Positions 1,126-10,019 of a DNA stretch of 10,019 bases are shown here, one piece after another. Within the stretch, counting starts at the first letter, position 1, and each line of letters starts with the position of its first letter. Position numbers and translations under genes: made by a program. The notes below the pieces were generated by a model. That model did not search any database. It was not told the DNA's origin and saw nothing but the letters and a program-made list of their open reading frames with translations. The stretch lies in the IMG/VR virus record IMGVR_UViG_2579778989_000006; one strand, given 5' to 3'. The stretch comes from a virus (Duplodnaviria > Heunggongvirae > Uroviricota > Caudoviricetes).

Positions 1126-1805
1126 ATAACCAGTATTTACAGTTTGTTCGTGAGCAACTCATGATTGCCACAGCGGATCTCAGTGGGTCGACAAAAGGCC
1201 AGCTGGAAGCCTGGCAGGAAAATGCCCTGTACGATACAGGGCGTTACAGACGCAAAAAAATTCGTTACCGCGATGAGGTAACCGGAAAAATGATCACGCG
1301 GGATAACCCACCGATCCCGGGTAAACAATCACTGGCGAAAGGCTCATCAATTGCGCTGGTCAGTCCGGTTGAGTTTGCAACATCATCGTGGCGGCGTGCC
1401 GTTCTGGAACTGGAAGAGCATCAGAAGGCGTGGTTACTGTGGTGCTACAGTGGAAATGTTTGCTGGGAAGATCAGGTCACCATAACACAGTGGGTATGGA
1501 GTGAGTTTAAGGCTCAATCCGGTACCAGAAAAATAGCGGGGAAAACGCAGGAACGCCTGAAGAGGTTGATCTGGCTGGCTGTACAGGATGTGAAGAGCGA
1601 GCTGGTCGGGCGTGAGACTTATGAACATCAGGCGTTGGCGGTGTTGATGGGAGTTGCTAAATCTACATGGACAACAACACACAGGCCTCACTGGTTGGCT
1701 ATGCGGGGTAGTGCAGAGGGGCTGGACAGGGATGCGCTTATTTCAGTAATGCGGGTACGATCACGGCAACAGTCGCTTAATTTAGAACCATATCTTGCAA
1801 AATAG
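1122..1805 (+). CDS. Late-gene antitermination protein candidate (Q position); family not verified
   Basis: 227-aa ORF from ATG 1122 (track gives GTG 1116); GAGGTGG Shine-Dalgarno upstream; ATG overlaps the rusA stop (ATGA), implying translational coupling. Sits in the canonical Q slot: immediately after rusA and immediately before a promoter-like element and a strong intrinsic terminator. I do not see the lambda-Q zinc-finger motif, so the assignment is positional. Confidence 0.55.
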   Translation: MNNQYLQFVREQLMIATADLSGSTKGQLEAWQENALYDTGRYRRKKIRYRDEVTGKMITRDNPPIPGKQSLAKGSSIALVSPVEFATSSWRRAVLELEEHQKAWLLWCYSGNVCWEDQVTITQWVWSEFKAQSGTRKIAGKTQERLKRLIWLAVQDVKSELVGRETYEHQALAVLMGVAKSTWTTTHRPHWLAMRGSAEGLDRDALISVMRVRSRQQSLNLEPYLAK

Positions 1806-1823
1806 AACTGAAGAGCATATATT
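1795..1823 (+). promoter_or_regulatory. Candidate late promoter (pR'-like): -35 TTGCAA, 17-bp spacer, -10 TATATT
   Basis: TTGCAA at 1795-1800, TATATT at 1818-1823, 17-nt spacer; located at the 3' end of the Q-position gene and ~50 bp upstream of a strong terminator, as for lambdoid pR'/tR'. Confidence 0.35.
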
Positions 1824-1872: not shown

Positions 1873-1900
1873 AAAAAACCGCCGCCAGGCGGTTTTTTTA
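1873..1900 (+). terminator. Rho-independent terminator (tR'-like), potentially bidirectional
   Basis: AACCGCC (1877-1883), loop GCCA, GGCGGTT (1888-1894): a perfect 7-bp GC-rich stem followed by a run of seven T; preceded by an A-tract. Confidence 0.7.
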
Positions 1901-2342: not shown

Positions 2343-2780
2343 GTGAGCCTACCAGAGTTACGCTTACTGATCCATGAAAATACTGTAAAAATAAACAGTG
2401 TTGATTTAATCAACGCTGATTGCCTGCATTTTATTCAGTCCCTGCCTGATGATTCCATTGACCTGATTGTTACCGATCCGCCGTATTTCAAAGTGAAACC
2501 CGAGGGCTGGGACAATCAGTGGAAGGGCGACGATGATTACCTGAAGTGGCTGGACCAGTGTCTGGCTCAGTTCTGGCGGGAGCTGAAACCTGCTGGAAGT
2601 CTTTACCTGTTCTGTGGACATCGCCTGGCATCTGATATTGAAATCGTGATGCGTAAACGTTTTAATGTGCTGAACCATATCATATGGGCGAAGCCGTTCA
2701 GACCTTGGAGCGCATGCTGTTGTTGCTCACTGGTATTACGAACGGTTTGCTCACGGGGATGTACACATATTAATTGTTGA
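2343..2780 (+). pseudogene. N6-adenine DNA methyltransferase, 5' remnant (truncated)
   Basis: N-terminal part has the catalytic motif IV DPPY (IDLIVTDPPYF) and conserved flanks (SVDLINADCLHFIQSLPDDS, LKPAGSLYLFCG), but the ORF ends after 145 codons in a Cys-rich tail (SACCCCSLVLRTVCSRGCTHINC) with no FxGxG AdoMet-binding motif. Base composition switches to strongly AT-rich at ~2765. Functional methylases of this class are roughly twice this length. Confidence 0.7.
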
Positions 2781-2788
2781 TGTTAATA

Positions 2789-3130
2789 TTACGTCATGTT
2801 ATTAATACAAAATTGCAACGCATCATTCAAAGTATTATAATTATCATTTGTTGCATTTATTATGCCAACATTCCTTGTTGGTCTTCCTTCCGTTGAATAT
2901 TCTATCCAGAATGAGCCGGTGTATTTTGACATTCTATATGTTGCGAATTCTTTTGCATTAATTGGTGGTTTGGTGCCGTTGAGATCCAATATATAACCAC
3001 TTTCTTGAATTGTCTTAGAAAGGCAATTGATTATTTCATTTGTCGATATTTCACTGTCGATTTGAGGATGATTCACAATTAGCCCCATGCAGAGGATGCT
3101 TGAAATTATTATAAAAATATTTTTTATCAT
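2789..3130 (-). CDS. Hypothetical 113-aa protein with N-terminal signal peptide or membrane anchor, on an AT-rich island
   Basis: Minus-strand ORF in a markedly AT-rich segment. N-terminus MIKNIFIIISSILCMGLIVNHP is a hydrophobic signal or anchor sequence; mature part is Asn/Thr/Ile-rich with two Cys (possible disulfide). Opposite orientation to the surrounding phage late genes; no strong Shine-Dalgarno. Not recognised as any known family. Confidence 0.55.
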   Translation of the reverse strand: MIKNIFIIISSILCMGLIVNHPQIDSEISTNEIINCLSKTIQESGYILDLNGTKPPINAKEFATYRMSKYTGSFWIEYSTEGRPTRNVGIINATNDNYNTLNDALQFCINNMT

Positions 3131-3402
3131 GATGTCTGTTTTTGTGAACTTTTAGATAGAATGTCTGCTGTGGAGATATGTATACCTCTTGTGCTCATTT
3201 ATTTCAATAGATAGTTGAGCACTCATTGTGCTAATGGAAGAAGTTTTTTAATATGGAGTATCATCAAAATCACACAATAGTGATTAATATTGCTATTAGA
3301 TAAAGAAGTATCGCTAACTTTGATTTTGTTGAATTTGTTTTTAATAAAAGTTAGTGTGGTTTATATAGCAGGCATATGCATGCTGTTTTTAAAGAAACTT
3401 AT

Positions 3403-3477
3403 TGCCCCTTTAGCCCTAATGGTCAGAGCGAGAGGTTAATAACCGCCAGGTCGCCGGTTCAAACATGGCAGGGGCAC
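3403..3477 (+). tRNA. tRNA-like element, probably a degenerate tRNA pseudogene (tRNA-Ile2/LAU-like body)
   Basis: Perfect 7-bp acceptor stem (TGCCCCT 3403-3409 with AGGGGCA 3470-3476) and a TTCAAAC T-loop, but the D stem and anticodon stem have multiple mismatches, the anticodon loop is TTAATAA, and no CCA is encoded (CGAA follows). Overall resembles the E. coli tRNA-Ile(LAU) gene as I recall it. Confidence 0.35.
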
Positions 3478-3480
3478 GAA

Positions 3481-3557
3481 GCGCTGTTAGCTCAGTTGGA
3501 CAGAGCAATTGCCTTCTAAGCAATCGGTCACTGGTTCGAATCCAGTATGGCGCACCA
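3481..3557 (+). tRNA. tRNA-Arg (anticodon UCU)
   Basis: Manual cloverleaf: acceptor GCGCTGT/ATGGCGC (two G-U pairs), D arm GCTC-AGTTGGACA-GAGC, anticodon arm ATTGC-CTTCTAA-GCAAT (anticodon TCT), variable loop CGGTC, T arm ACTGG-TTCGAAT-CCAGT, discriminator A and encoded CCA. 77 nt. Confidence 0.85.
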
Positions 3558-3558
3558 T

Positions 3559-3633
<75 letters not shown>

Positions 3634-4110
3634 TAGAGGATTATGGGACAGTATAGTGAGCATTTTTCTGCGTTACTTTTCATCGGTAAAAATAAGCATA
3701 CAACAACTATTTATGCTGGCATTAGCTATGATAGTTATTGGTTTTCTCGGAATGTGTTTATTTGTTTACTATATTCTTATCGATAACTGATATTTTTGAT
3801 ATGAATACGGAGTGGTACAAACAAAAATATGAATTCGCTATGGAATCAGGATGTGTAATAAAAATAATAGTCACTAAGTTATAGTTTTTTTTAAAATGTT
3901 AAAAACATCACATTTCATTATGTTGGGCACTGGAGAATACCCAGTCGTTTTGTTAAAAATAATTACGCATGGTGAATCCCCCTAAGCGGAGGGGCAATCA
4001 GCAACTGGTGTTTTGTCACCGACCCTTATCCTTTCTGTGCGGGTTCAGGTGCTGATACTGAACTCACCGGGAGGCACCCGGCACCATGCAAAATTGTCTA
4101 CACTACCACT

Positions 4111-4140
4111 GTAAAAAGCCCCTCTCCGGAGGGGCTTTTC
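4111..4140. terminator. Bidirectional rho-independent terminator hairpin
   Basis: GCCCCTC (4118-4124), loop TCCG, GAGGGGC (4129-4135); A-tract upstream (4113-4117) and T-tract downstream (4136-4139). Confidence 0.6.
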
Positions 4141-4239
4141 TATGGGCAAAAAAAAGCCCGCAGTGAGTGGCGGGCGGGTCGCATGAATATACATCAGGTA
4201 TTTTTATTATCGTGTTCTGATTTTTACCATCTGTGATAA

Positions 4240-4265: not shown

Positions 4266-4358
4266 GTTTTGCGGGCTGCGGTTCTCCTCTTTTGATTCTC
4301 CGTGTAGCCGGACCGTGGCCCGCAACTGTTGAGGAAAATCCCGGAAAGGGGAGGAATA

Positions 4359-6293
4359 ATGGCATTTAAACACTATGACGTGGTCAGGGCGGCGTCGCCG
4401 TCAGACCTTGCGGAGCGACTGACACAAAAACTGAAGGAAGGCTGGCAGCCGTTTGGCAGTCCTGTGGCTATCACGCCTTATACACTGATGCAGGCCATTG
4501 CCGCAGAGGGTGATGTGACCACGCCTGTGGTTGTGCCCGACACAGGGGCTGGTGGCTCTCCGGGAGTGGCTACCACTGAACCGGAGTATTACTACGTTAT
4601 TCCCCTGGCCGGGCAGTCGAACGGTATGGCCTATGGTGAGGGGCTTCCTCTGCCGGAGACCTATGATCGCCCTGACTCCCGTATTAAGCAGCTGGCCCGT
4701 CGCAGCACTGTGACGCCGGGTGGTGATACCTGTGCATACAATGACGTTATTCCGGCAGACCACTGTCTGCATGATGTTCAGGACATGAGCGCACTTAACC
4801 ATCCTCATGCAGACCTGAGTAAGGGCCAGTACGGGACTGTCGGTCAGGGGCTGCATATTGCCAAAAAACTGCTGCCTTATATCCCGCAGAATGCCGGGAT
4901 TCTTCTGGTGCCCTGTTGCCGTGGCGGGTCTGGTTTAACCGTGGGTAATGACGGCACGTTCAGCGAAACGTCTGGCGCATCGGCAAATTCAGCCCGCTGG
5001 GGAGTGGGTAAACCGCTGTATCAGGATTTTCTCTTCCGTACAAAAGCGGCGCTGTCGAAGAACCCGAAAAACAGGCTTCTGGCCGTGGTATGGATGCAGG
5101 GGGAAAATGATCTTGCGGACGGCAGTCAGCAGCACAGCGGCCTGTTTACCACTATGGTGCAGCAGTTCAGGGCTGATATGGCTGCATATTCTGCACAGTG
5201 TGTTGGCGGAAGTGCTGGCTCGGTGCCGTGGATTTGTGGTGACACCACGTATTACTGGAAGAATCTTAACGCCGATAAATATGAGGCGGTATATGGCGGT
5301 TACAAGGGCAGGGAAGCACAGAATATTTTCTTTGTTCCTTTTATGACGGACAGCAGTGGTGCAAACACACCCACCAACAATCCGTCAGAAGACCCGGATA
5401 TTCCGGCATCAGGATATTACGGTGCAGCTTCCCGGACGTCGGCAAACTGGACGTCAGCAGACCGTGCGAGCCATTTCAGCTCATGGGCACGCAGGGGGAT
5501 TATCTCTGACCGTCTGGCCTCAGCGATTCTTCTCCATGCAGGACGAACGGCTGAACTGGTGGGGGGACAGGTTGTGACGCCGCCGGATGAGAAGCCGTCA
5601 CCGGACACACCACCAACACCGTCAACGGACGGGAAATCAGTGACAACGCTGCTTTCTTACCGTGCAGCAGAGTCAGATGGTTTACTGACTCCGCAGGGAT
5701 GGGGAGCTGAAGGAGGGAGTGCAGCGGTAGTTGATGATGCAGGTGCTGCGGGAGGTAAGGCGCTGAGGCTGACCAAACAGGCAGGAAGGTCTTCGTGGTT
5801 TATGCAGCATGATGCCGGTAATGGCGCAGACCTTCTGGAGAAAGGCGGGCTTATCAGCTGTCGTTTTAAAGTTGATGGTGTGCTGTCTGCTAACCGTTAT
5901 GCACTGGCGCTGTACTGGCCGGTTTCTTCATTGCCTCAGGGTGTCACACTGGAAGGTAATGCCGGTAACAATCTGCTGGCGTCGTTTTACGTACAGAGCG
6001 ATGCCACAGACCTCAACGTGATGTACCACAAGGGTAACGCTGACCAGAACACGAAGCTGGGGTCATTCGGCGCATTTGACAACGAATGGCATACGCTGGG
6101 CTTCCGTTTTGCCGGTAATAACAGCATTCAGGTGACGCCGGTGATTGATGGTCAGGATGGTGCACCGTTCATGCTGTCGCAGTCTCCGGTAGGTTCTTTT
6201 GCGGCAGACAAATTACGTGTAACGGATATCACAAAAGCGGCGACGTATACGGTGCTGATTGAAAGTATAACAGTGGAAGTGAATAACCCGTAA
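4359..6293 (+). CDS. nanS-p: Prophage-encoded sialate O-acetylesterase (NanS-p type): DUF1737-like N-terminus, SGNH/SASA esterase domain, C-terminal beta-rich domain
   Basis: Track ORF 4329-6293; preferred start ATG 4359 (GGGGAGGA Shine-Dalgarno 5-8 nt upstream). N-terminus MAFKHYDVVRAASPSDLAERL...GWQPFGSPV is the DUF1737-type module; YYVIPLAGQSNGMAYGEG holds the GQSN catalytic-serine block of SGNH esterases; a Pro/Thr-rich linker (PPDEKPSPDTPPTPSTDGK) precedes a C-terminal ~200-aa domain. Location downstream of the phage tRNA array matches nanS-p genes of EHEC Stx prophages. Confidence 0.85.
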   Translation: MAFKHYDVVRAASPSDLAERLTQKLKEGWQPFGSPVAITPYTLMQAIAAEGDVTTPVVVPDTGAGGSPGVATTEPEYYYVIPLAGQSNGMAYGEGLPLPETYDRPDSRIKQLARRSTVTPGGDTCAYNDVIPADHCLHDVQDMSALNHPHADLSKGQYGTVGQGLHIAKKLLPYIPQNAGILLVPCCRGGSGLTVGNDGTFSETSGASANSARWGVGKPLYQDFLFRTKAALSKNPKNRLLAVVWMQGENDLADGSQQHSGLFTTMVQQFRADMAAYSAQCVGGSAGSVPWICGDTTYYWKNLNADKYEAVYGGYKGREAQNIFFVPFMTDSSGANTPTNNPSEDPDIPASGYYGAASRTSANWTSADRASHFSSWARRGIISDRLASAILLHAGRTAELVGGQVVTPPDEKPSPDTPPTPSTDGKSVTTLLSYRAAESDGLLTPQGWGAEGGSAAVVDDAGAAGGKALRLTKQAGRSSWFMQHDAGNGADLLEKGGLISCRFKVDGVLSANRYALALYWPVSSLPQGVTLEGNAGNNLLASFYVQSDATDLNVMYHKGNADQNTKLGSFGAFDNEWHTLGFRFAGNNSIQVTPVIDGQDGAPFMLSQSPVGSFAADKLRVTDITKAATYTVLIESITVEVNNP

Positions 6294-6442
6294 GCAGGAA
6301 AAAAAAGACCGCCGTGGCAGGGAAAACAAGGAGCCAGAACCGGCGGCAGAAGTCGCTACATCCTTAGCAAAAATATGCTGAGCAAAAAATGCAGGAGTTT
6401 TTTACTGGCAGGCATTGACCATGTCAATAATGGAGATGAATA

Positions 6443-6625
6443 ATGACATTTTTACAGCTGATTATGTTGTATTTCTGTACAGCAGTTTGTGTGCTGTATC
6501 TTCTTTCTGGTGGGTACAGAGTCGTGAGAGATTTCTGGCGCAGACAGATTGACAAAAGGGCCGCTGAGAAAATCAGTGCCAGTCAGTCAGCCGGAACAAA
6601 ACCCGAAGAGCCTCTCATTCCGTAG
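6443..6625 (+). CDS. Hypothetical small membrane protein (60 aa)
   Basis: GGAG Shine-Dalgarno ~8 nt upstream of ATG 6443; N-terminal hydrophobic helix (LQLIMLYFCTAVCVLYLLSGG) followed by a basic then acidic tail. Confidence 0.5.
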   Translation: MTFLQLIMLYFCTAVCVLYLLSGGYRVVRDFWRRQIDKRAAEKISASQSAGTKPEEPLIP

Positions 6626-6661
6626 CAACTTTCTTAACAACACCTTTCAACGAGAAAATAC

Positions 6662-6932
6662 CATGTCAGAAATAAAATCGCTGGTCACTGCTGAAGCAGT
6701 GAAGGAAGTCCTGCGCTCTGAAGAAGTCAGAAGCGCACTGAAACAGCAACTTCGGCAGAACCTTGAGGCGCGTCTTGATGCAGAAGTGGATGCCATTCTG
6801 GATGAACTGCTGGGCGCACCGACTGTTCCGGAGCCGGAAGGCATTGCGGATGACAGTGCTGTTTCAGATGGCGTCGGGTCTCAGCCTGATGGTAGCAGTG
6901 AGCCTCAGCCTGACGGCGAAATGATGATGTAA
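6662..6932 (+). CDS. Hypothetical acidic protein (~90 aa)
   Basis: Track ORF 6549-6932 overlaps the preceding ORF; the first ATG clear of the overlap is 6662 (MSEIKSLVTAEAVKEVLRSEE...). Strongly acidic C-terminus (SEPQPDGEMMM). Weak Shine-Dalgarno; start uncertain. Confidence 0.4.
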
Positions 6933-7007
6933 CCATGCGCAGGGGCTGTCGGTGTGAGCTGATGCCCCTCTTGTTGTTGTGAGCTTCCGGATTGCGGGAG
7001 ACGGGGT

Positions 7008-7223
7008 ATGTACCAGATGGAAAAAATCACAACAGGTGTGTCATACACCACGTCAGCGGTGGGAACGGGCTACTGGTTCCTGCAGTTGCTGGACAGGGTT
7101 TCCCCGTCTCAGTGGGCGGCAATAGGCGTGCTGGGGAGTCTGCTGTTTGGGCTGCTGACATATCTGACTAACCTGTATTTCAAAATCAGAGAGGACCGGC
7201 GTAAGGCCGCCCGGGGAGAGTGA
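7008..7223 (+). CDS. S: Class II holin, S21-type pinholin, with dual-start motif
   Basis: 71-aa ORF; GGAGACGGGG Shine-Dalgarno. Two in-frame starts (Met1 and Met4: [10 protein letters not shown]) as in holin/antiholin pairs. Sequence ...[51 protein letters not shown] closely matches phage 21 S21 as I recall it (two TM segments, charged C-terminus). Confidence 0.85.
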
Positions 7224-7226
7224 ATA

Positions 7227-7784
7227 ATGAACCATGAAGAAATGAATCAGCGCTTCAGTCGCCTGGAAAATGAAATTGCTGAACTGAATAAAAAACTGTC
7301 GACGCTGATGCCTTCTGAAGATGAAAAAAAACGCCGCGATGAGCAGTTTGCTGCGTTTGACGATTATTGTCGGAAAGTGATGAGCAGAAATCTCGCAGAG
7401 TGTTTCAGTATTCATAATGATAATTTCAGTGACCTGGAATGGGAGTGTAACCGGCCATCCTTTGTTGTATCCGGTGATGCCGGGAAAATAACCATCACAG
7501 AAAATGGGAAACTAACACCTCCATCGCACCAGCACAGTGAGGAGCTCATTGAATTTGCCATTGATTACCTGAAGAACAATAAAAAGCAGGGGCTGATGAA
7601 GCGCGTTGGCCGTTGCATGGGATATCTGCAGATAGCTGCTGAGATTGAAGCGCTGGCCAGTGGTGCGGACAAGGATGCAGTTGTGCGGGAGGCTCTTCTT
7701 CGTGATTTTGATAATCCGCCCTTTAAAAAAGTGCCGGCTTACTGGTTTCATCCAGGACTGACTTATCTTAAAGGACGTATATAA
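7227..7784 (+). CDS. Hypothetical 185-aa soluble protein located between holin and endolysin
   Basis: ATG 7227 lies 3 nt after the holin stop (TGA 7221-7223) with GGGGAGAG Shine-Dalgarno inside the holin 3' end, implying translational coupling. N-terminal predicted coiled coil (NQRFSRLENEIAELNKKLSTL), no hydrophobic segment, four Cys. No family recognised. Confidence 0.6.
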   Translation: MNHEEMNQRFSRLENEIAELNKKLSTLMPSEDEKKRRDEQFAAFDDYCRKVMSRNLAECFSIHNDNFSDLEWECNRPSFVVSGDAGKITITENGKLTPPSHQHSEELIEFAIDYLKNNKKQGLMKRVGRCMGYLQIAAEIEALASGADKDAVVREALLRDFDNPPFKKVPAYWFHPGLTYLKGRI

Positions 7785-7826
7785 GCTGGCTCGTTATCTG
7801 TTGCCGATAAATCCTGATAAATATCC

Positions 7827-8360
7827 ATGAACACCAAAATCAAATACGGCCTGTCGGCTGCCGTTCTGGCGCTGATTGCCGCTGGTGCGCCTGCGCCTGA
7901 CATTCTCGACCAGTTTCTGGATGAAAAGGAAGGCAATCACACCACGGCATACCGTGATGGTGCAGGTATCTGGACCATCTGCCGTGGTGCCATCATGGTG
8001 GATGGCAAACCTGTCGTTCCGGGCATGAAGTTGTCGAAGGAAAAATGCGACCAGGTTAACGCCATTGAGCGTGATAAAGCGCTGGCGTGGGTGGAGAAAA
8101 ACATCAGAGTGCCACTGACCGAACCCCAGAAAGCGGGGATCGCGTCATTCTGTCCGTACAACATTGGTCCCGGTAAGTGTTTCCCGTCGACGTTTTATAA
8201 ACGAATTAATGCAGGCGATCGCAGGGGGGCGTGTGAGGCGATTCGCTGGTGGATTAAGGACGGTGGCAGAGACTGCCGTATTCGCTCAAACAACTGTTAC
8301 GGTCAGGTATCCCGTCGCGACCAGGAGAGTGCGCTGGCGTGCTGGGGAATTGACAGATAA
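7827..8360 (+). CDS. R: SAR endolysin (T4-lysozyme-like muramidase, GH24) with signal-anchor-release N-terminus
   Basis: 177-aa ORF. N-terminal Gly/Ala-rich weakly hydrophobic segment (LSAAVLALIAAGAPAP) typical of SAR domains, followed by the lysozyme catalytic triad spacing E-x8-D-x5-T (EGNHTTAYRDGAGIWT). Pairs with the pinholin upstream. Confidence 0.85.
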   Translation: MNTKIKYGLSAAVLALIAAGAPAPDILDQFLDEKEGNHTTAYRDGAGIWTICRGAIMVDGKPVVPGMKLSKEKCDQVNAIERDKALAWVEKNIRVPLTEPQKAGIASFCPYNIGPGKCFPSTFYKRINAGDRRGACEAIRWWIKDGGRDCRIRSNNCYGQVSRRDQESALACWGIDR

Positions 8361-8450
8361 GCAGAATATTTTGCTGAAAAATGCGGTTTGCTCACACGGA
8401 CGGATAACACGAAATCCTGCGAACTGACAAAAACTAAGTGAATAAAAGTA

Positions 8451-8484
8451 AAAACCCCGTTTGTTGGCTGCAAGCGGGGTTTTG
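8451..8484 (+). terminator. Rho-independent terminator-like hairpin between endolysin and spanin genes
   Basis: CCCCGTTTG (8455-8463), 7-nt loop, CAAGCGGGG (8471-8479): 9-bp stem with one G-U pair, followed by TTTTGTGTTT; A-rich tract upstream. Confidence 0.55.
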
Positions 8485-8558
8485 TGTTTCCTGACTCTGG
8501 AAAAGTCAAAGGAGAAAGTGTGTTTGATTTTAGCAAACTGATTCGGGAGATTCGAGTG

Positions 8559-8657
8559 ATGGCTGAAAAATTATCCACCTGGAAGTTCATTCTTATCTGG
8601 CTGGTGTTTGTGATTATGGCCTCCGGTTATTTCATCGGTCAGATACGCTGGTGGTGA
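8559..8657 (+). CDS. Candidate 32-aa membrane micro-protein, translationally coupled to Rz
   Basis: ATG 8559 with GGGAG Shine-Dalgarno 9 nt upstream; product MAEKLSTWKFILIWLVFVIMASGYFIGQIRWW (single hydrophobic helix); stop TGA 8655-8657 is 1 nt before the Rz ATG (TGAaATG). Below the size cutoff of the supplied ORF track. Confidence 0.35.
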   Translation: MAEKLSTWKFILIWLVFVIMASGYFIGQIRWW

Positions 8658-8658
8658 A

Positions 8659-9126
8659 ATGAACCGCGTACTGTGCGTGGTCATCATTGCCCTGCTGGTG
8701 GCCTGTGGTGCGCTTAGTCTGGGGCTGAATCATTACCGTGATAACGCCATAACCTACAAAGAGCAGCGCGATAAAAAAGTCAGTGAGCTGGAGCTGGCAA
8801 ATGCAACCATTACTGATATGCAGCAGCGCCAGCGTGATGTTGCTGCACTTGATGCCAGATACTCGAGGGAATTAGCCGATGCGAGAGCTGAAAATGAAAC
8901 TCTTCGCGCTGACGTTGCCGCTGGTCACCGCAGCCTGCGGATCAACGCCACCTGTCCAGGTCCCGTGCGTGAAGCCACCGGCACCGCCCGCGTGGATAAT
9001 GCAACCGGCCCCCAACTGGCAGACACCGTTACACGGGATTATTTCACCCTCAGAGAGCGGCTGATGACGATGCAGAAGCAACTGGAAGGGGCACAGGACT
9101 ATATCCGCACTCAGTGCCTGAAATAA
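8659..9126 (+). CDS. Rz: Rz i-spanin (inner-membrane spanin subunit)
   Basis: 155-aa ORF with N-terminal TM anchor (VLCVVIIALLVACGALSLGL), coiled-coil middle, and an embedded +1-frame lipoprotein gene, the defining Rz/Rz1 architecture. Confidence 0.85.
   Translation: MNRVLCVVIIALLVACGALSLGLNHYRDNAITYKEQRDKKVSELELANATITDMQQRQRDVAALDARYSRELADARAENETLRADVAAGHRSLRINATCPGPVREATGTARVDNATGPQLADTVTRDYFTLRERLMTMQKQLEGAQDYIRTQCLK
8879..9064 (+). CDS. Rz1: Rz1 o-spanin (outer-membrane lipoprotein), embedded in Rz in the +1 frame
   Basis: ORF wholly inside Rz in another frame; signal peptide with lipobox-like LVTAAC followed by a Pro-rich mature region (CVKPPAPPAWIMQPAPNWQTPLHGIISPSESG) nearly matching lambda Rz1 as I recall it. 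Start may be ATG 8879 (GAGGGA Shine-Dalgarno) or ATG 8894. Confidence 0.8.
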   Translation: MRELKMKLFALTLPLVTAACGSTPPVQVPCVKPPAPPAWIMQPAPNWQTPLHGIISPSESG

Positions 9127-9154
9127 GTTTTGCTGATGCGCGGTATTGTCGCCG

Positions 9155-9219
9155 TATCCCCGCATTAACAGAGACCGCAGCCCGACAGGGAGACTCCTCT
9201 GCGCGAGTGTGCGGGGATA
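9155..9219. repeat. Perfect 10-bp inverted repeat (TATCCCCGCA / TGCGGGGATA) with 45-bp spacer downstream of Rz
   Basis: TATCCCCGCA at 9155-9164 and its exact reverse complement at 9210-9219, in a GC-rich noncoding stretch between the lysis cassette and the AT-rich distal region. Confidence 0.5.
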
Positions 9220-9476
9220 ATCAAAAACGATACACACCGGGGTTTACCGCGTTAACGGAGCGCGGCGTTGTCCCCTCATAGTCGCCTGTCCGGTGCGATG
9301 GTGGAAGAAGCCGGATGTTTATCACTATTAATTGATGACACAGAAATGGATTCATTGAATTTCAGCACGTTTTTGTATTCGTGTTATTGAACATCTGTTT
9401 ATTTTACTTTTAACATATTGATAATAAAAAGAGCTGTAAATCTTTAGATGAGTCGATTTTGTCCGGGGAAGTTCAA

Positions 9477-9620
9477 ATGGATTTTATGCTGACGGTTTCT
9501 GGTGTGGTTATCCTGTCCATTGCTTATACTGCAGATAAATATGGCTGCCATTTGTTATCACGTATTGGCGCTTATTGTTCGTTGATGCTGATTTTCTCGT
9601 CGCTTTTTTTTGAGTAAGTT
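9477..9620 (+). CDS. Candidate 47-aa membrane micro-protein
   Basis: ATG 9477 with GGGGAAG Shine-Dalgarno ~7 nt upstream; product MDFMLTVSGVVILSIAYTADKYGCHLLSRIGAYCSLMLIFSSLFFE has two hydrophobic stretches. Below track size cutoff; AT-rich context. Confidence 0.3.
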
Positions 9621-9749
9621 ATATTAATTATAACAAATAATTTTCTGTGTTATTTTTTCAGGCTATCCCGTCAGAGGGGAAGCCTGTACTGCCAGGGAGC
9701 GAATGGAAAACTGATGTGTCCGGTAACTGCGTGTTCTGTGAACACCATG

Positions 9750-9935
9750 TTACTTAATTATGTAATTCATACCCGAACTCTCTGTTGACAGCCTTCTTCT
9801 GCAGGCTTCAATAACCCACGCTGAAAAGTTTCCTGAACCTTTCAGATCAAGAGCGATGTTAATTTGTTCAATCATCTGGTTTGGAAATCGGATGTTGCGG
9901 GTTGTTGTTCTGCGCGTTCTGTTTTTTGATGACAT
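9750..9935 (-). CDS. Small YlcI/DUF3950-like protein, probable ribbon-helix-helix-type DNA-binding protein
   Basis: 61-aa minus-strand ORF with GGGGAAA Shine-Dalgarno ~8 nt upstream of the start. Product MSSKNRTRRTTTRNIRFPNQMIEQINIALDLKGSGNFSAWVIEACRRRL... has a basic N-terminus then a beta-strand/helix pattern like Arc/CopG folds. Resembles the ylcI-type small proteins found distal to lysis genes in E. coli cryptic prophages (from memory). Confidence 0.5.
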   Translation of the reverse strand: MSSKNRTRRTTTRNIRFPNQMIEQINIALDLKGSGNFSAWVIEACRRRLSTESSGMNYIIK

Positions 9936-10019
9936 AATGTTTCCCCATATTCAGTGTTGCTGATTTGTATTATCAGAAGTTGCTTTTACGTTAATTTGAC
10001 GCAGATCAATTAATACGAT

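Follow-up and report, generated by a model that had tools for sequence, protein, structure and literature searches.

A 10,019-nucleotide (nt) stretch of DNA from a virus of the class Caudoviricetes (IMG/VR record IMGVR_UViG_2579778989_000006; the whole stretch is referred to below as the window) carries, on the minus strand at positions 2789–3130, an open reading frame (ORF) of 113 amino acids (aa) that is a genuine gene under purifying selection and whose product fits no described family. The gene is foreign cargo joined to a truncated phage methylase gene and, in Escherichia, is constantly paired with an array of phage transfer RNA (tRNA) genes. Taken as a whole, the following reading is considered moderately probable: the gene would belong to a recurrent cargo unit consisting of a small exported protein and a tRNA array, would be expressed in the lysogen, and would give a periplasmic product with a non-enzymatic binding or shielding role. 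The features on which this account rests are as follows (position in the window, strand, description, basis of assignment):

2343–2711, plus strand: 5′ remnant of a phage N6/N4 DNA methylase gene, comprising the first ~118–122 of 352 codons (Pfam, alignment)
2712–3396, no strand: AT-rich island (composition, junction alignment)
2789–3130, minus strand: gene for the 113-aa precursor of a small, predicted exported protein (ORF, homologues, ratio of nonsynonymous to synonymous substitution rates (dN/dS), AlphaFold, signal-peptide features)
3179–3207, minus strand: promoter-like block made up of TTGAAA (3207–3202), a 17-nt spacer and TATACA (3184–3179) (alignment of alleles)
3397–3470, plus strand: decayed ileZ-like tRNA gene of the tRNA-Ile2 type, the first of the array that faces the ORF (alignment to intact copies)
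3481–3557, plus strand: tRNA-Arg(TCT) (ARAGORN; Rfam, 68.7 bits)
3559–3633, plus strand: tRNA-Gly(TCC) (ARAGORN; Rfam, 62.7 bits)

The window covers the region of late regulation and lysis in an E. coli lambdoid prophage and is 99.97% identical to the JKHS016 chromosome. The content of guanine plus cytosine (G+C) of the island is 0.32 as a fraction (0.275 in the lowest 200-nt windows), against 0.51 at positions 1–2711 and 0.50 at positions 4329–10019. An abrupt drop in G+C between the methylase remnant and the tRNA genes had been pointed out in an earlier reading of the sequence alone (the original prediction) and was confirmed at 32% versus about 50%. The AT-rich island that had been placed at 2700–3402 lies there, with its edges now set at 2712 and, where the decayed ileZ-like tRNA starts, at about 3396. 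The minus-strand ORF that had been named as the only gene of the island was recovered as the sole island ORF conserved elsewhere.

The left-hand junction was located by comparison with intact methylases. The ORF at 2343–2780 matches the Pfam profile N6_N4_Mtase (E 3.4e-14) over profile positions 1–85 of 221 only, and the remnant is 82% identical to residues 3–120 of the intact 352-aa methylase from the related locus L003. DNA homology to the intact methylases of E. coli genomes and phages ends at 2709–2711, and the open frame continues into island DNA, ending at 2780; in the Prokaryotic Genome Annotation Pipeline (PGAP) annotation the remnant is labelled a pseudogene (“incomplete, missing C-terminus”). 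The frame end lies 8 bp from the stop codon of the minus-strand ORF (2789–2791), in agreement with the convergent arrangement that had been described. The claim that the island replaces the 3′ half of the methylase gene was right in that the 3′ part has been removed and too modest in extent, about two thirds of the gene being missing. A check of whether the island is an indel relative to an intact methylase had also been proposed; homologous genes adjoin an intact methylase in L003 and occur in O166:H15 (L015) with no methylase at all. The truncation is therefore regarded as an incidental by-product of the unit joining this phage.

In this prophage, the 3′ flank of the unit has become fused by illegitimate recombination to codon ~120 of the methylase gene, which was thereby inactivated. 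Positions 2711–2721 (GCGCATGCTGT) constitute junction filler at the left edge of the island. Direct repeats of 13 nt, GCATGCTGTTGTT (2712–2724) and GCATGCTGTTTTT (3378–3390), flank the island and are identical at 12 of the 13 positions; chance alone would produce about one such repeat in the searched region, so that their number is at chance level and their position alone is suggestive. They may have served as microhomology during the joining, or may be due to chance. No convincing transposon-like terminal inverted repeats were found around the module. As a separate observation, the shared module ends within 10 bases at two unrelated junctions: at the methylase stump of the window (2711–2721) and at the integrase stump of the related locus L002 (L002 6996–7001).

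The status of the ORF as a gene was assessed from its distribution and its substitution pattern. Island DNA is present in nine of 5426 complete E. coli genomes (identity 86–100%) and in five IMG/VR prophage contigs, and was not found in sequenced phage isolates; once alleles of 72% identity are counted, the ORF is present in 27 of the 5426 genomes. It is intact in all nine close copies and in the diverged alleles, no allele examined has an interruption in the full-length frame, hydrophobic N-terminus included, and dN/dS for the mature part is 0.135–0.59 (pairwise Nei–Gojobori). Protein searches (5.8 billion clusters, and 1.84 billion representatives scanned exhaustively with HMMER) yielded one small closed family from Escherichia and Salmonella, with members of about 95–135 aa: ten close Escherichia clusters and about 25 Salmonella clusters. 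Identity is 55–98% for Escherichia members (60–98% for the full-length alleles in other prophages and remnants) and 30–37% for Salmonella members, S. bongori included. A third profile search added no further taxa, and among 185,579 species-representative genomes the scan was positive for E. ruysiae and two subspecies of S. enterica only. Two giant repeat proteins returned by HMMER as relatives (P0011, E 1e-25; P0016, E 1e-14) were rejected: each repeat gives about 25 bits in pairwise comparison, and the scores are artefacts because identical repeats are summed.

An island in decay, with the ORF as an unexpressed and functionless leftover, was considered as an alternative. In the window allele, TAA replaces a lysine codon of the 98%-identical allele P0001, and this nonsense change removes the last two residues (KY); the adjacent ileZ-like tRNA and the methylase are pseudogenes, and neither a Shine–Dalgarno sequence nor a terminator was found for the ORF. 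The two lost residues, however, lie past the last helix of the confidently folded domain, and the intact frame in close and diverged copies together with dN/dS well below 1 makes this alternative very improbable.

Comparison of the product with curated families gave best E values of 0.23 (Pfam), 0.057 (PHROG) and 0.02 (NCBIfam), all far below the curated cut-offs; PADLOC returned no match for it, leaving a defence role without support from this source, and a profile search of all PDB sequences was empty at E up to 10. The sensitive homology search proposed with the original prediction thus gave no confident match to a well-characterised family in Pfam, PHROG, NCBIfam, PADLOC or PDB. The statement made there that the protein could not be placed in any family holds for described families; the protein is not unique, however, its chromosomal counterpart being widespread in Salmonella. 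A literature search on late-region cargo of Shiga toxin (Stx) phages returned no paper describing this ORF. The family is uncharacterised.

The pairing of gene and tRNA array was examined in other genomes. Wherever an Escherichia context offers sufficient flanking DNA, the ORF runs antisense to the late operon, and a gap of 190–350 nt separates its 5′ end from the leading gene of the phage tRNA array that it faces. The facing tRNA genes are the following:

Window, L016 and L022: tRNA-Arg and tRNA-Gly
L003: array of the ileZ-argN-argO type
L005, L006, L008, L009 and L018: ileZ-type tRNA
O166:H15 (L015): tRNA-Gly

The tRNA-Arg and tRNA-Gly pair, divergent from the ORF, also follows it in L002, L016 and L022; most related prophages carry an Ile-Arg-Arg array in place of this pair. 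The block as a whole is 84% identical between the window (2721–4150) and L002 of strain MFDS1022581 (7001–8414), and window positions 2783–3521 are 70% identical to L003. All other neighbours vary with the context (methylase stump, DUF3927 and PmrD-like genes, Q, HNH_2, ompT, icd, yedF/fliE), so that no constant partner gene stands beside the ORF and only the tRNA array recurs, in Escherichia only. The lack of such a constant partner makes both a toxin–immunity pair and a multi-gene defence system unlikely.

The unit is also kept in gutted prophage remnants: in L002 at yccA/serT, flanked by stumps of an integrase gene and of lom, and in L018 (E. ruysiae) beside icd. L006 and L007 keep it beside ompT and a gene for an AraC-type regulator. 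Survival of the unit in remnants stripped of almost every other phage gene is as expected of cargo that benefits the host. The original prediction had spoken of independently acquired cargo at a phage hotspot; the foreign composition and the variable slot downstream of Q bear this out, but the gene is one half of a recurrent ORF-plus-tRNA unit and does not stand alone. The island is the gene-bearing half of a unit shuffled among lambdoid prophages, located in the variable slot between the Q antiterminator gene and the lysis genes. Other cargo in this slot comprises a PmrD/IraM-like gene oriented against the late operon, a TerB-family gene and DUF3927 genes (L003 6849–7172; L015 3026–3451), and the differing cargo in L003 and L015 indicates that the slot is highly variable.

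A true homologue of the ORF (profile E 1e-30 to 1e-50) is the “putative exported protein” encoded between yedF and fliE on the Salmonella chromosome. It matches the product of the ORF in length and signal peptide and shares with it both invariant cysteines and the motif G[ST]FWI, and its gene likewise lies in an islet of lower G+C; it differs in sequence (30–37% identity) and in being encoded by a single chromosomal gene, outside any prophage and with no adjacent tRNA array. A literature search by protein accession returned no paper on this homologue, which is likewise uncharacterised. Its database labels are “putative exported protein”, “hypothetical protein” and “50S ribosomal protein L1”, the last being an evident mis-annotation (L010–L013, 8001–8375). 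For the yedF–fliE interval of E. coli K-12, yedK, yedL, yedN and intG are annotated, none of which is a possible homologue as judged from the annotation only, no sequence search having been made.

Sequence features of the family and the structural model make it most likely that the product reaches the periplasm and is held in shape there by a disulfide bond (C36–C108). The precursor is divided into a predicted signal peptide (residues 1 to about 16–19) and a mature α/β domain (residues ~22–112). Signal-peptide features were scored with a heuristic script for 21 members. All full-length members have an n-region with a net charge of +1 to +5 (+1 to +3 save for one over-extended gene call), a hydrophobic core of 11–16 residues and small residues at positions –3/–1; no member has a lipobox in the signal region, and no full-length member has a second hydrophobic segment. 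Cleavage sites of the relatives include SLA|A, AAA|R and TGA|V and are of the textbook AXA type in most. Cleavage of the signal peptide is therefore likely for the family and less certain for the window allele, the N-terminus of which reads MIKN (+1) followed by IFIIISSILCMGLIV, with a hydrophobic run of 15 residues. Of the signal or anchor sequence and the two cysteines noted in the original prediction, the signal-like N-terminus was found again, whereas the precursor contains three cysteines, only two of them in the mature part: C14 in the signal peptide, which is not conserved in the family, and C36 and C108. The latter two are invariant in 21 of 21 aligned sequences, two N-terminally truncated gene calls included, at a mean column identity of 45%. 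They sit on the first (C36) and the last (C108) helix, and their invariance together with the predicted export argues for a putative C36–C108 disulfide. Under the proposed mechanism, the protein would be exported via a Sec-type signal peptide and disulfide-bonded in the periplasm.

Structure prediction, also proposed with the original prediction, gave a confident α/β domain. The AlphaFold2 model computed with Salmonella sequences in the alignment has a mean predicted local distance difference test score (pLDDT) of 85.7 and a predicted template modelling score (pTM) of 0.76, and nearly all 10-residue blocks of the mature domain average a pLDDT of at least 90; with the close Escherichia alignment alone the pLDDT was 48 and the model unusable, which was mended by the Salmonella homologues. 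The predicted elements are a strand (23–25), a helix (30–42), three strands (59–66, 69–77 and 85–91) and a helix (95–112). The modelled fold is a compact β-α-β4-α domain, a common two-layer α/β sandwich, and assigns no function. Foldseek searches against BFVD and PDB returned nothing with E <0.003 or a template modelling (TM) score above about 0.5. KA1-type, BamC N-domain and Flpp3-like domains resemble the model at 2–13% identity and Foldseek E of at least 0.03, a resemblance in common fold that is no evidence for homology or function.

A non-enzymatic binding role is most likely, because there is no catalytic motif and no constant partner gene and because the fold is typical of binding modules. 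We conjecture a binding or shielding role in the envelope: the product would be a stand-alone protein that alters the envelope of the lysogen, for example by keeping out an incoming phage or by obstructing an enzyme or toxin that acts in the periplasm. A related alternative is an orphan protein of the immunity or inhibitor kind that neutralises a colicin, an effector of the type VI secretion system (T6SS) or a lysozyme acting in the periplasm, in the manner of small inhibitors that stand alone there. Pfam includes models of known lysozyme-inhibitor and immunity families, and none of its families was matched at E up to 1; in no context does the ORF adjoin a cognate toxin gene, and the structural scores amount to generic fold resemblance. 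This alternative is considered decidedly unlikely.

Expression was assessed from signals around the ORF. The promoter-like block (family form TTGAAA-17-TATA(C/G/T)(A/C)) lies about 50 nt upstream of ATG 3130 and is kept in the window, L002, L003 and L005 although the flanking DNA has diverged. From this conservation we infer a candidate promoter for the ORF itself; with the block upstream of ATG 3130, the predicted start of transcription fits the 113-aa product. The Q-modified late transcript from the pR′-like promoter at 1795–1823 would pass antisense through the ORF. On account of its orientation against this Q-dependent transcript and of the promoter-like block, the gene is predicted to be transcribed on its own in the lysogen; after induction, expression would be dampened by the convergent late transcription. 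Control by H-NS, as put forward in the original prediction, is suggested by the 30% G+C and remains putative.

The codon usage of the ORF may link it to the tRNA genes. ATA accounts for nine of its 18 isoleucine codons and occurs at 7.9 per 100 codons, versus 0.66 in the neighbouring phage genes, and all three arginine codons are AGA or AGG. ATA is read by ileZ-type tRNA-Ile2 and AGA by tRNA-Arg(UCU). Gene and tRNAs may therefore travel together so that an AT-rich gene is transferred along with the tRNAs that decode it. In the window, the ileZ-like tRNA at 3397–3470 was called by neither ARAGORN nor Rfam; it has AAT in place of the anticodon CAT, an extra D-loop base, a broken T stem and no CCA. 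Intact copies are found at the same position in L003, L005, L015 and L018.

Several observations weigh against the reading of a lysogen-expressed, exported cargo protein. The gene is rare, as the count of 27 in 5426 complete E. coli genomes makes plain. The –10 element of the promoter-like block is imperfect, its final T being missing, and the block was missed in a strict promoter scan, in which the number of sites was no higher than in shuffled sequence. No Shine–Dalgarno sequence was found before ATG 3130 in any allele, and no minus-strand terminator-like site was found after the stop codon at 2789, the fold of 2800–2660 being no more stable than that of shuffled sequence (z 0.20). The decay of the adjacent ileZ-like tRNA weakens the idea of codon supply for the window allele. 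Two further points concern the N-terminus and lead to readings of their own: the only –3/–1 candidate of the window allele is the weak site CMG|LIV, so that its N-terminus could stay in the membrane as an anchor, and in the PGAP annotation of the identical record a 95-aa product starting at Met15 (ATG 3088–3086), which lacks the signal peptide, is preferred.

If the N-terminus were left uncleaved, the product would be a bitopic inner-membrane protein with a periplasmic domain, which could block DNA entry in the manner of superinfection-exclusion proteins. The weak cleavage site and the 15-residue hydrophobic run of the window allele are compatible with an anchor, and the prophage cargo slot and the antisense orientation suit a lysogen gene. 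Most relatives, however, have AXA-type sites, their cores of 11–16 residues are short for a membrane span, no exclusion family was matched in PADLOC or PHROG, and the Salmonella copy outside any prophage speaks against a purely anti-phage role; the anchored form is judged unlikely. According to the start at Met15, the true product would be a cytoplasmic protein and the hydrophobic N-terminus an untranslated leader. Apart from the PGAP annotation, this start is favoured by a weak promoter-like match at 3148–3119, from which transcription would begin downstream of ATG 3130, and by several database entries of 97–99 aa. It is nevertheless scarcely credible: the N-terminal extension is open and its pattern of charge followed by hydrophobic residues is kept down to 30% identity, Salmonella included; the conserved promoter-like block lies 5′ of ATG 3130; Met15 is not conserved, the relatives having Thr, Ala, Ser or Leu; and the two invariant cysteines suit an oxidising compartment.

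The reading of the ORF as exported cargo of the lysogen was further compared with known systems. The ORF is a probable moron, coding for an orphan protein predicted to be exported, of a familiar kind and in a classic cargo slot of lambdoid prophages. As with the morons of lambdoid phages (bor and lom of lambda; stx in the slot between Q and the lysis genes), the island is of foreign composition (32% versus 50–51% G+C) and separates genes that are direct neighbours in related phages. The lysis genes come immediately after the intact methylase in PhiR40_1, mEp460 and related phages, the holin gene being next in PhiR40_1; in the window the island, the tRNAs, the STnc100 homologue and an esterase gene separate the methylase stump from the holin gene. 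The ORF occupies the same slot downstream of Q beside phage tRNAs in which stx sits in Stx phages, and shares with morons a small product predicted to be targeted to the envelope; the promoter-like block may give it a promoter of its own. It differs in that stx is co-directional with the late operon whereas the ORF is antisense to it, and in that the terminator of a moron was not detected. Bor and Lom, like all Pfam and PHROG families, bear no sequence relation to the product.

The slot between Q and the lysis genes of lambdoid prophages holds the Shiga toxin and other conversion genes, and because of this location the ORF is a reasonable candidate for a modifier of fitness or virulence. Orphan exported proteins are common in prophage cargo slots, and current understanding is not contradicted; the new points are the unit with phage tRNAs, the chromosomal homologue in Salmonella and the fold, which is confidently predicted and functionally uninformative. 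The family is tractable on account of this fold, the purifying selection, the retention in remnants and the Salmonella counterpart, through which a single series of experiments could reveal what a gene carried by thousands of Salmonella genomes does. Its pairing with tRNAs for the over-used codons ATA and AGA offers a testable case of cargo and decoding capacity travelling together. In a more far-reaching form, which is regarded as possible but doubtful, the family would be a previously unrecognised class of periplasmic lysogenic-conversion factors that is carried with the rare-codon tRNAs it needs, has become fixed in the Salmonella chromosome, and shields the envelope, through a mechanism of binding that is itself new, from a specific external attack (for example by host lysozyme, a superinfecting phage, or a colicin or T6SS effector).

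The remaining features of the window are as follows (position, strand, description, basis of assignment where given):

Up to 1805, plus strand: DUF968/NinG-like gene, rusA and Q (1116–1805; Q from the annotation of the identical record)
1795–1823, plus strand: pR′-like promoter TTGCAA-17-TATATT (consensus scan only)
1873–1898, plus strand: terminator directly after Q, a strong stem-loop with a T-run (consensus scan only)
After Q, plus-strand order: promoter/terminator, small ORF, methylase stump, AT-rich island, tRNA-Arg(TCT), tRNA-Gly(TCC)
After the tRNAs, plus-strand order: second AT-rich stretch, STnc100 homologue, SASA/NanS-p-type esterase gene, holin, lysozyme, Rz
3634–3936: second AT-rich stretch, 30% G+C
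3656–3790, plus strand: unannotated 44-aa hydrophobic ORF (…QQLFMLALAMIVIGFLGMCLFVYYILIDN) just after the tRNAs
3937–4147, plus strand: homologue of the small RNA STnc100 (Rfam RF02076, 140.8 bits, full length)

Weak Rfam matches of the isrK-like and STnc370-like types overlap the 1795–1898 region. Nearly every E. coli genome has a chromosomal tRNA-Gly with 96% identity to the phage tRNA-Gly(TCC), which suggests that the phage captured a host tRNA gene. The 44-aa ORF has no Pfam match and is retained in L002 with the same stop codon (84% DNA identity); it occupies the position at which DUF3927 small membrane proteins lie in other prophages. Positions 4039–4143, which form part of the STnc100 homologue, are common to many Stx-type prophages.

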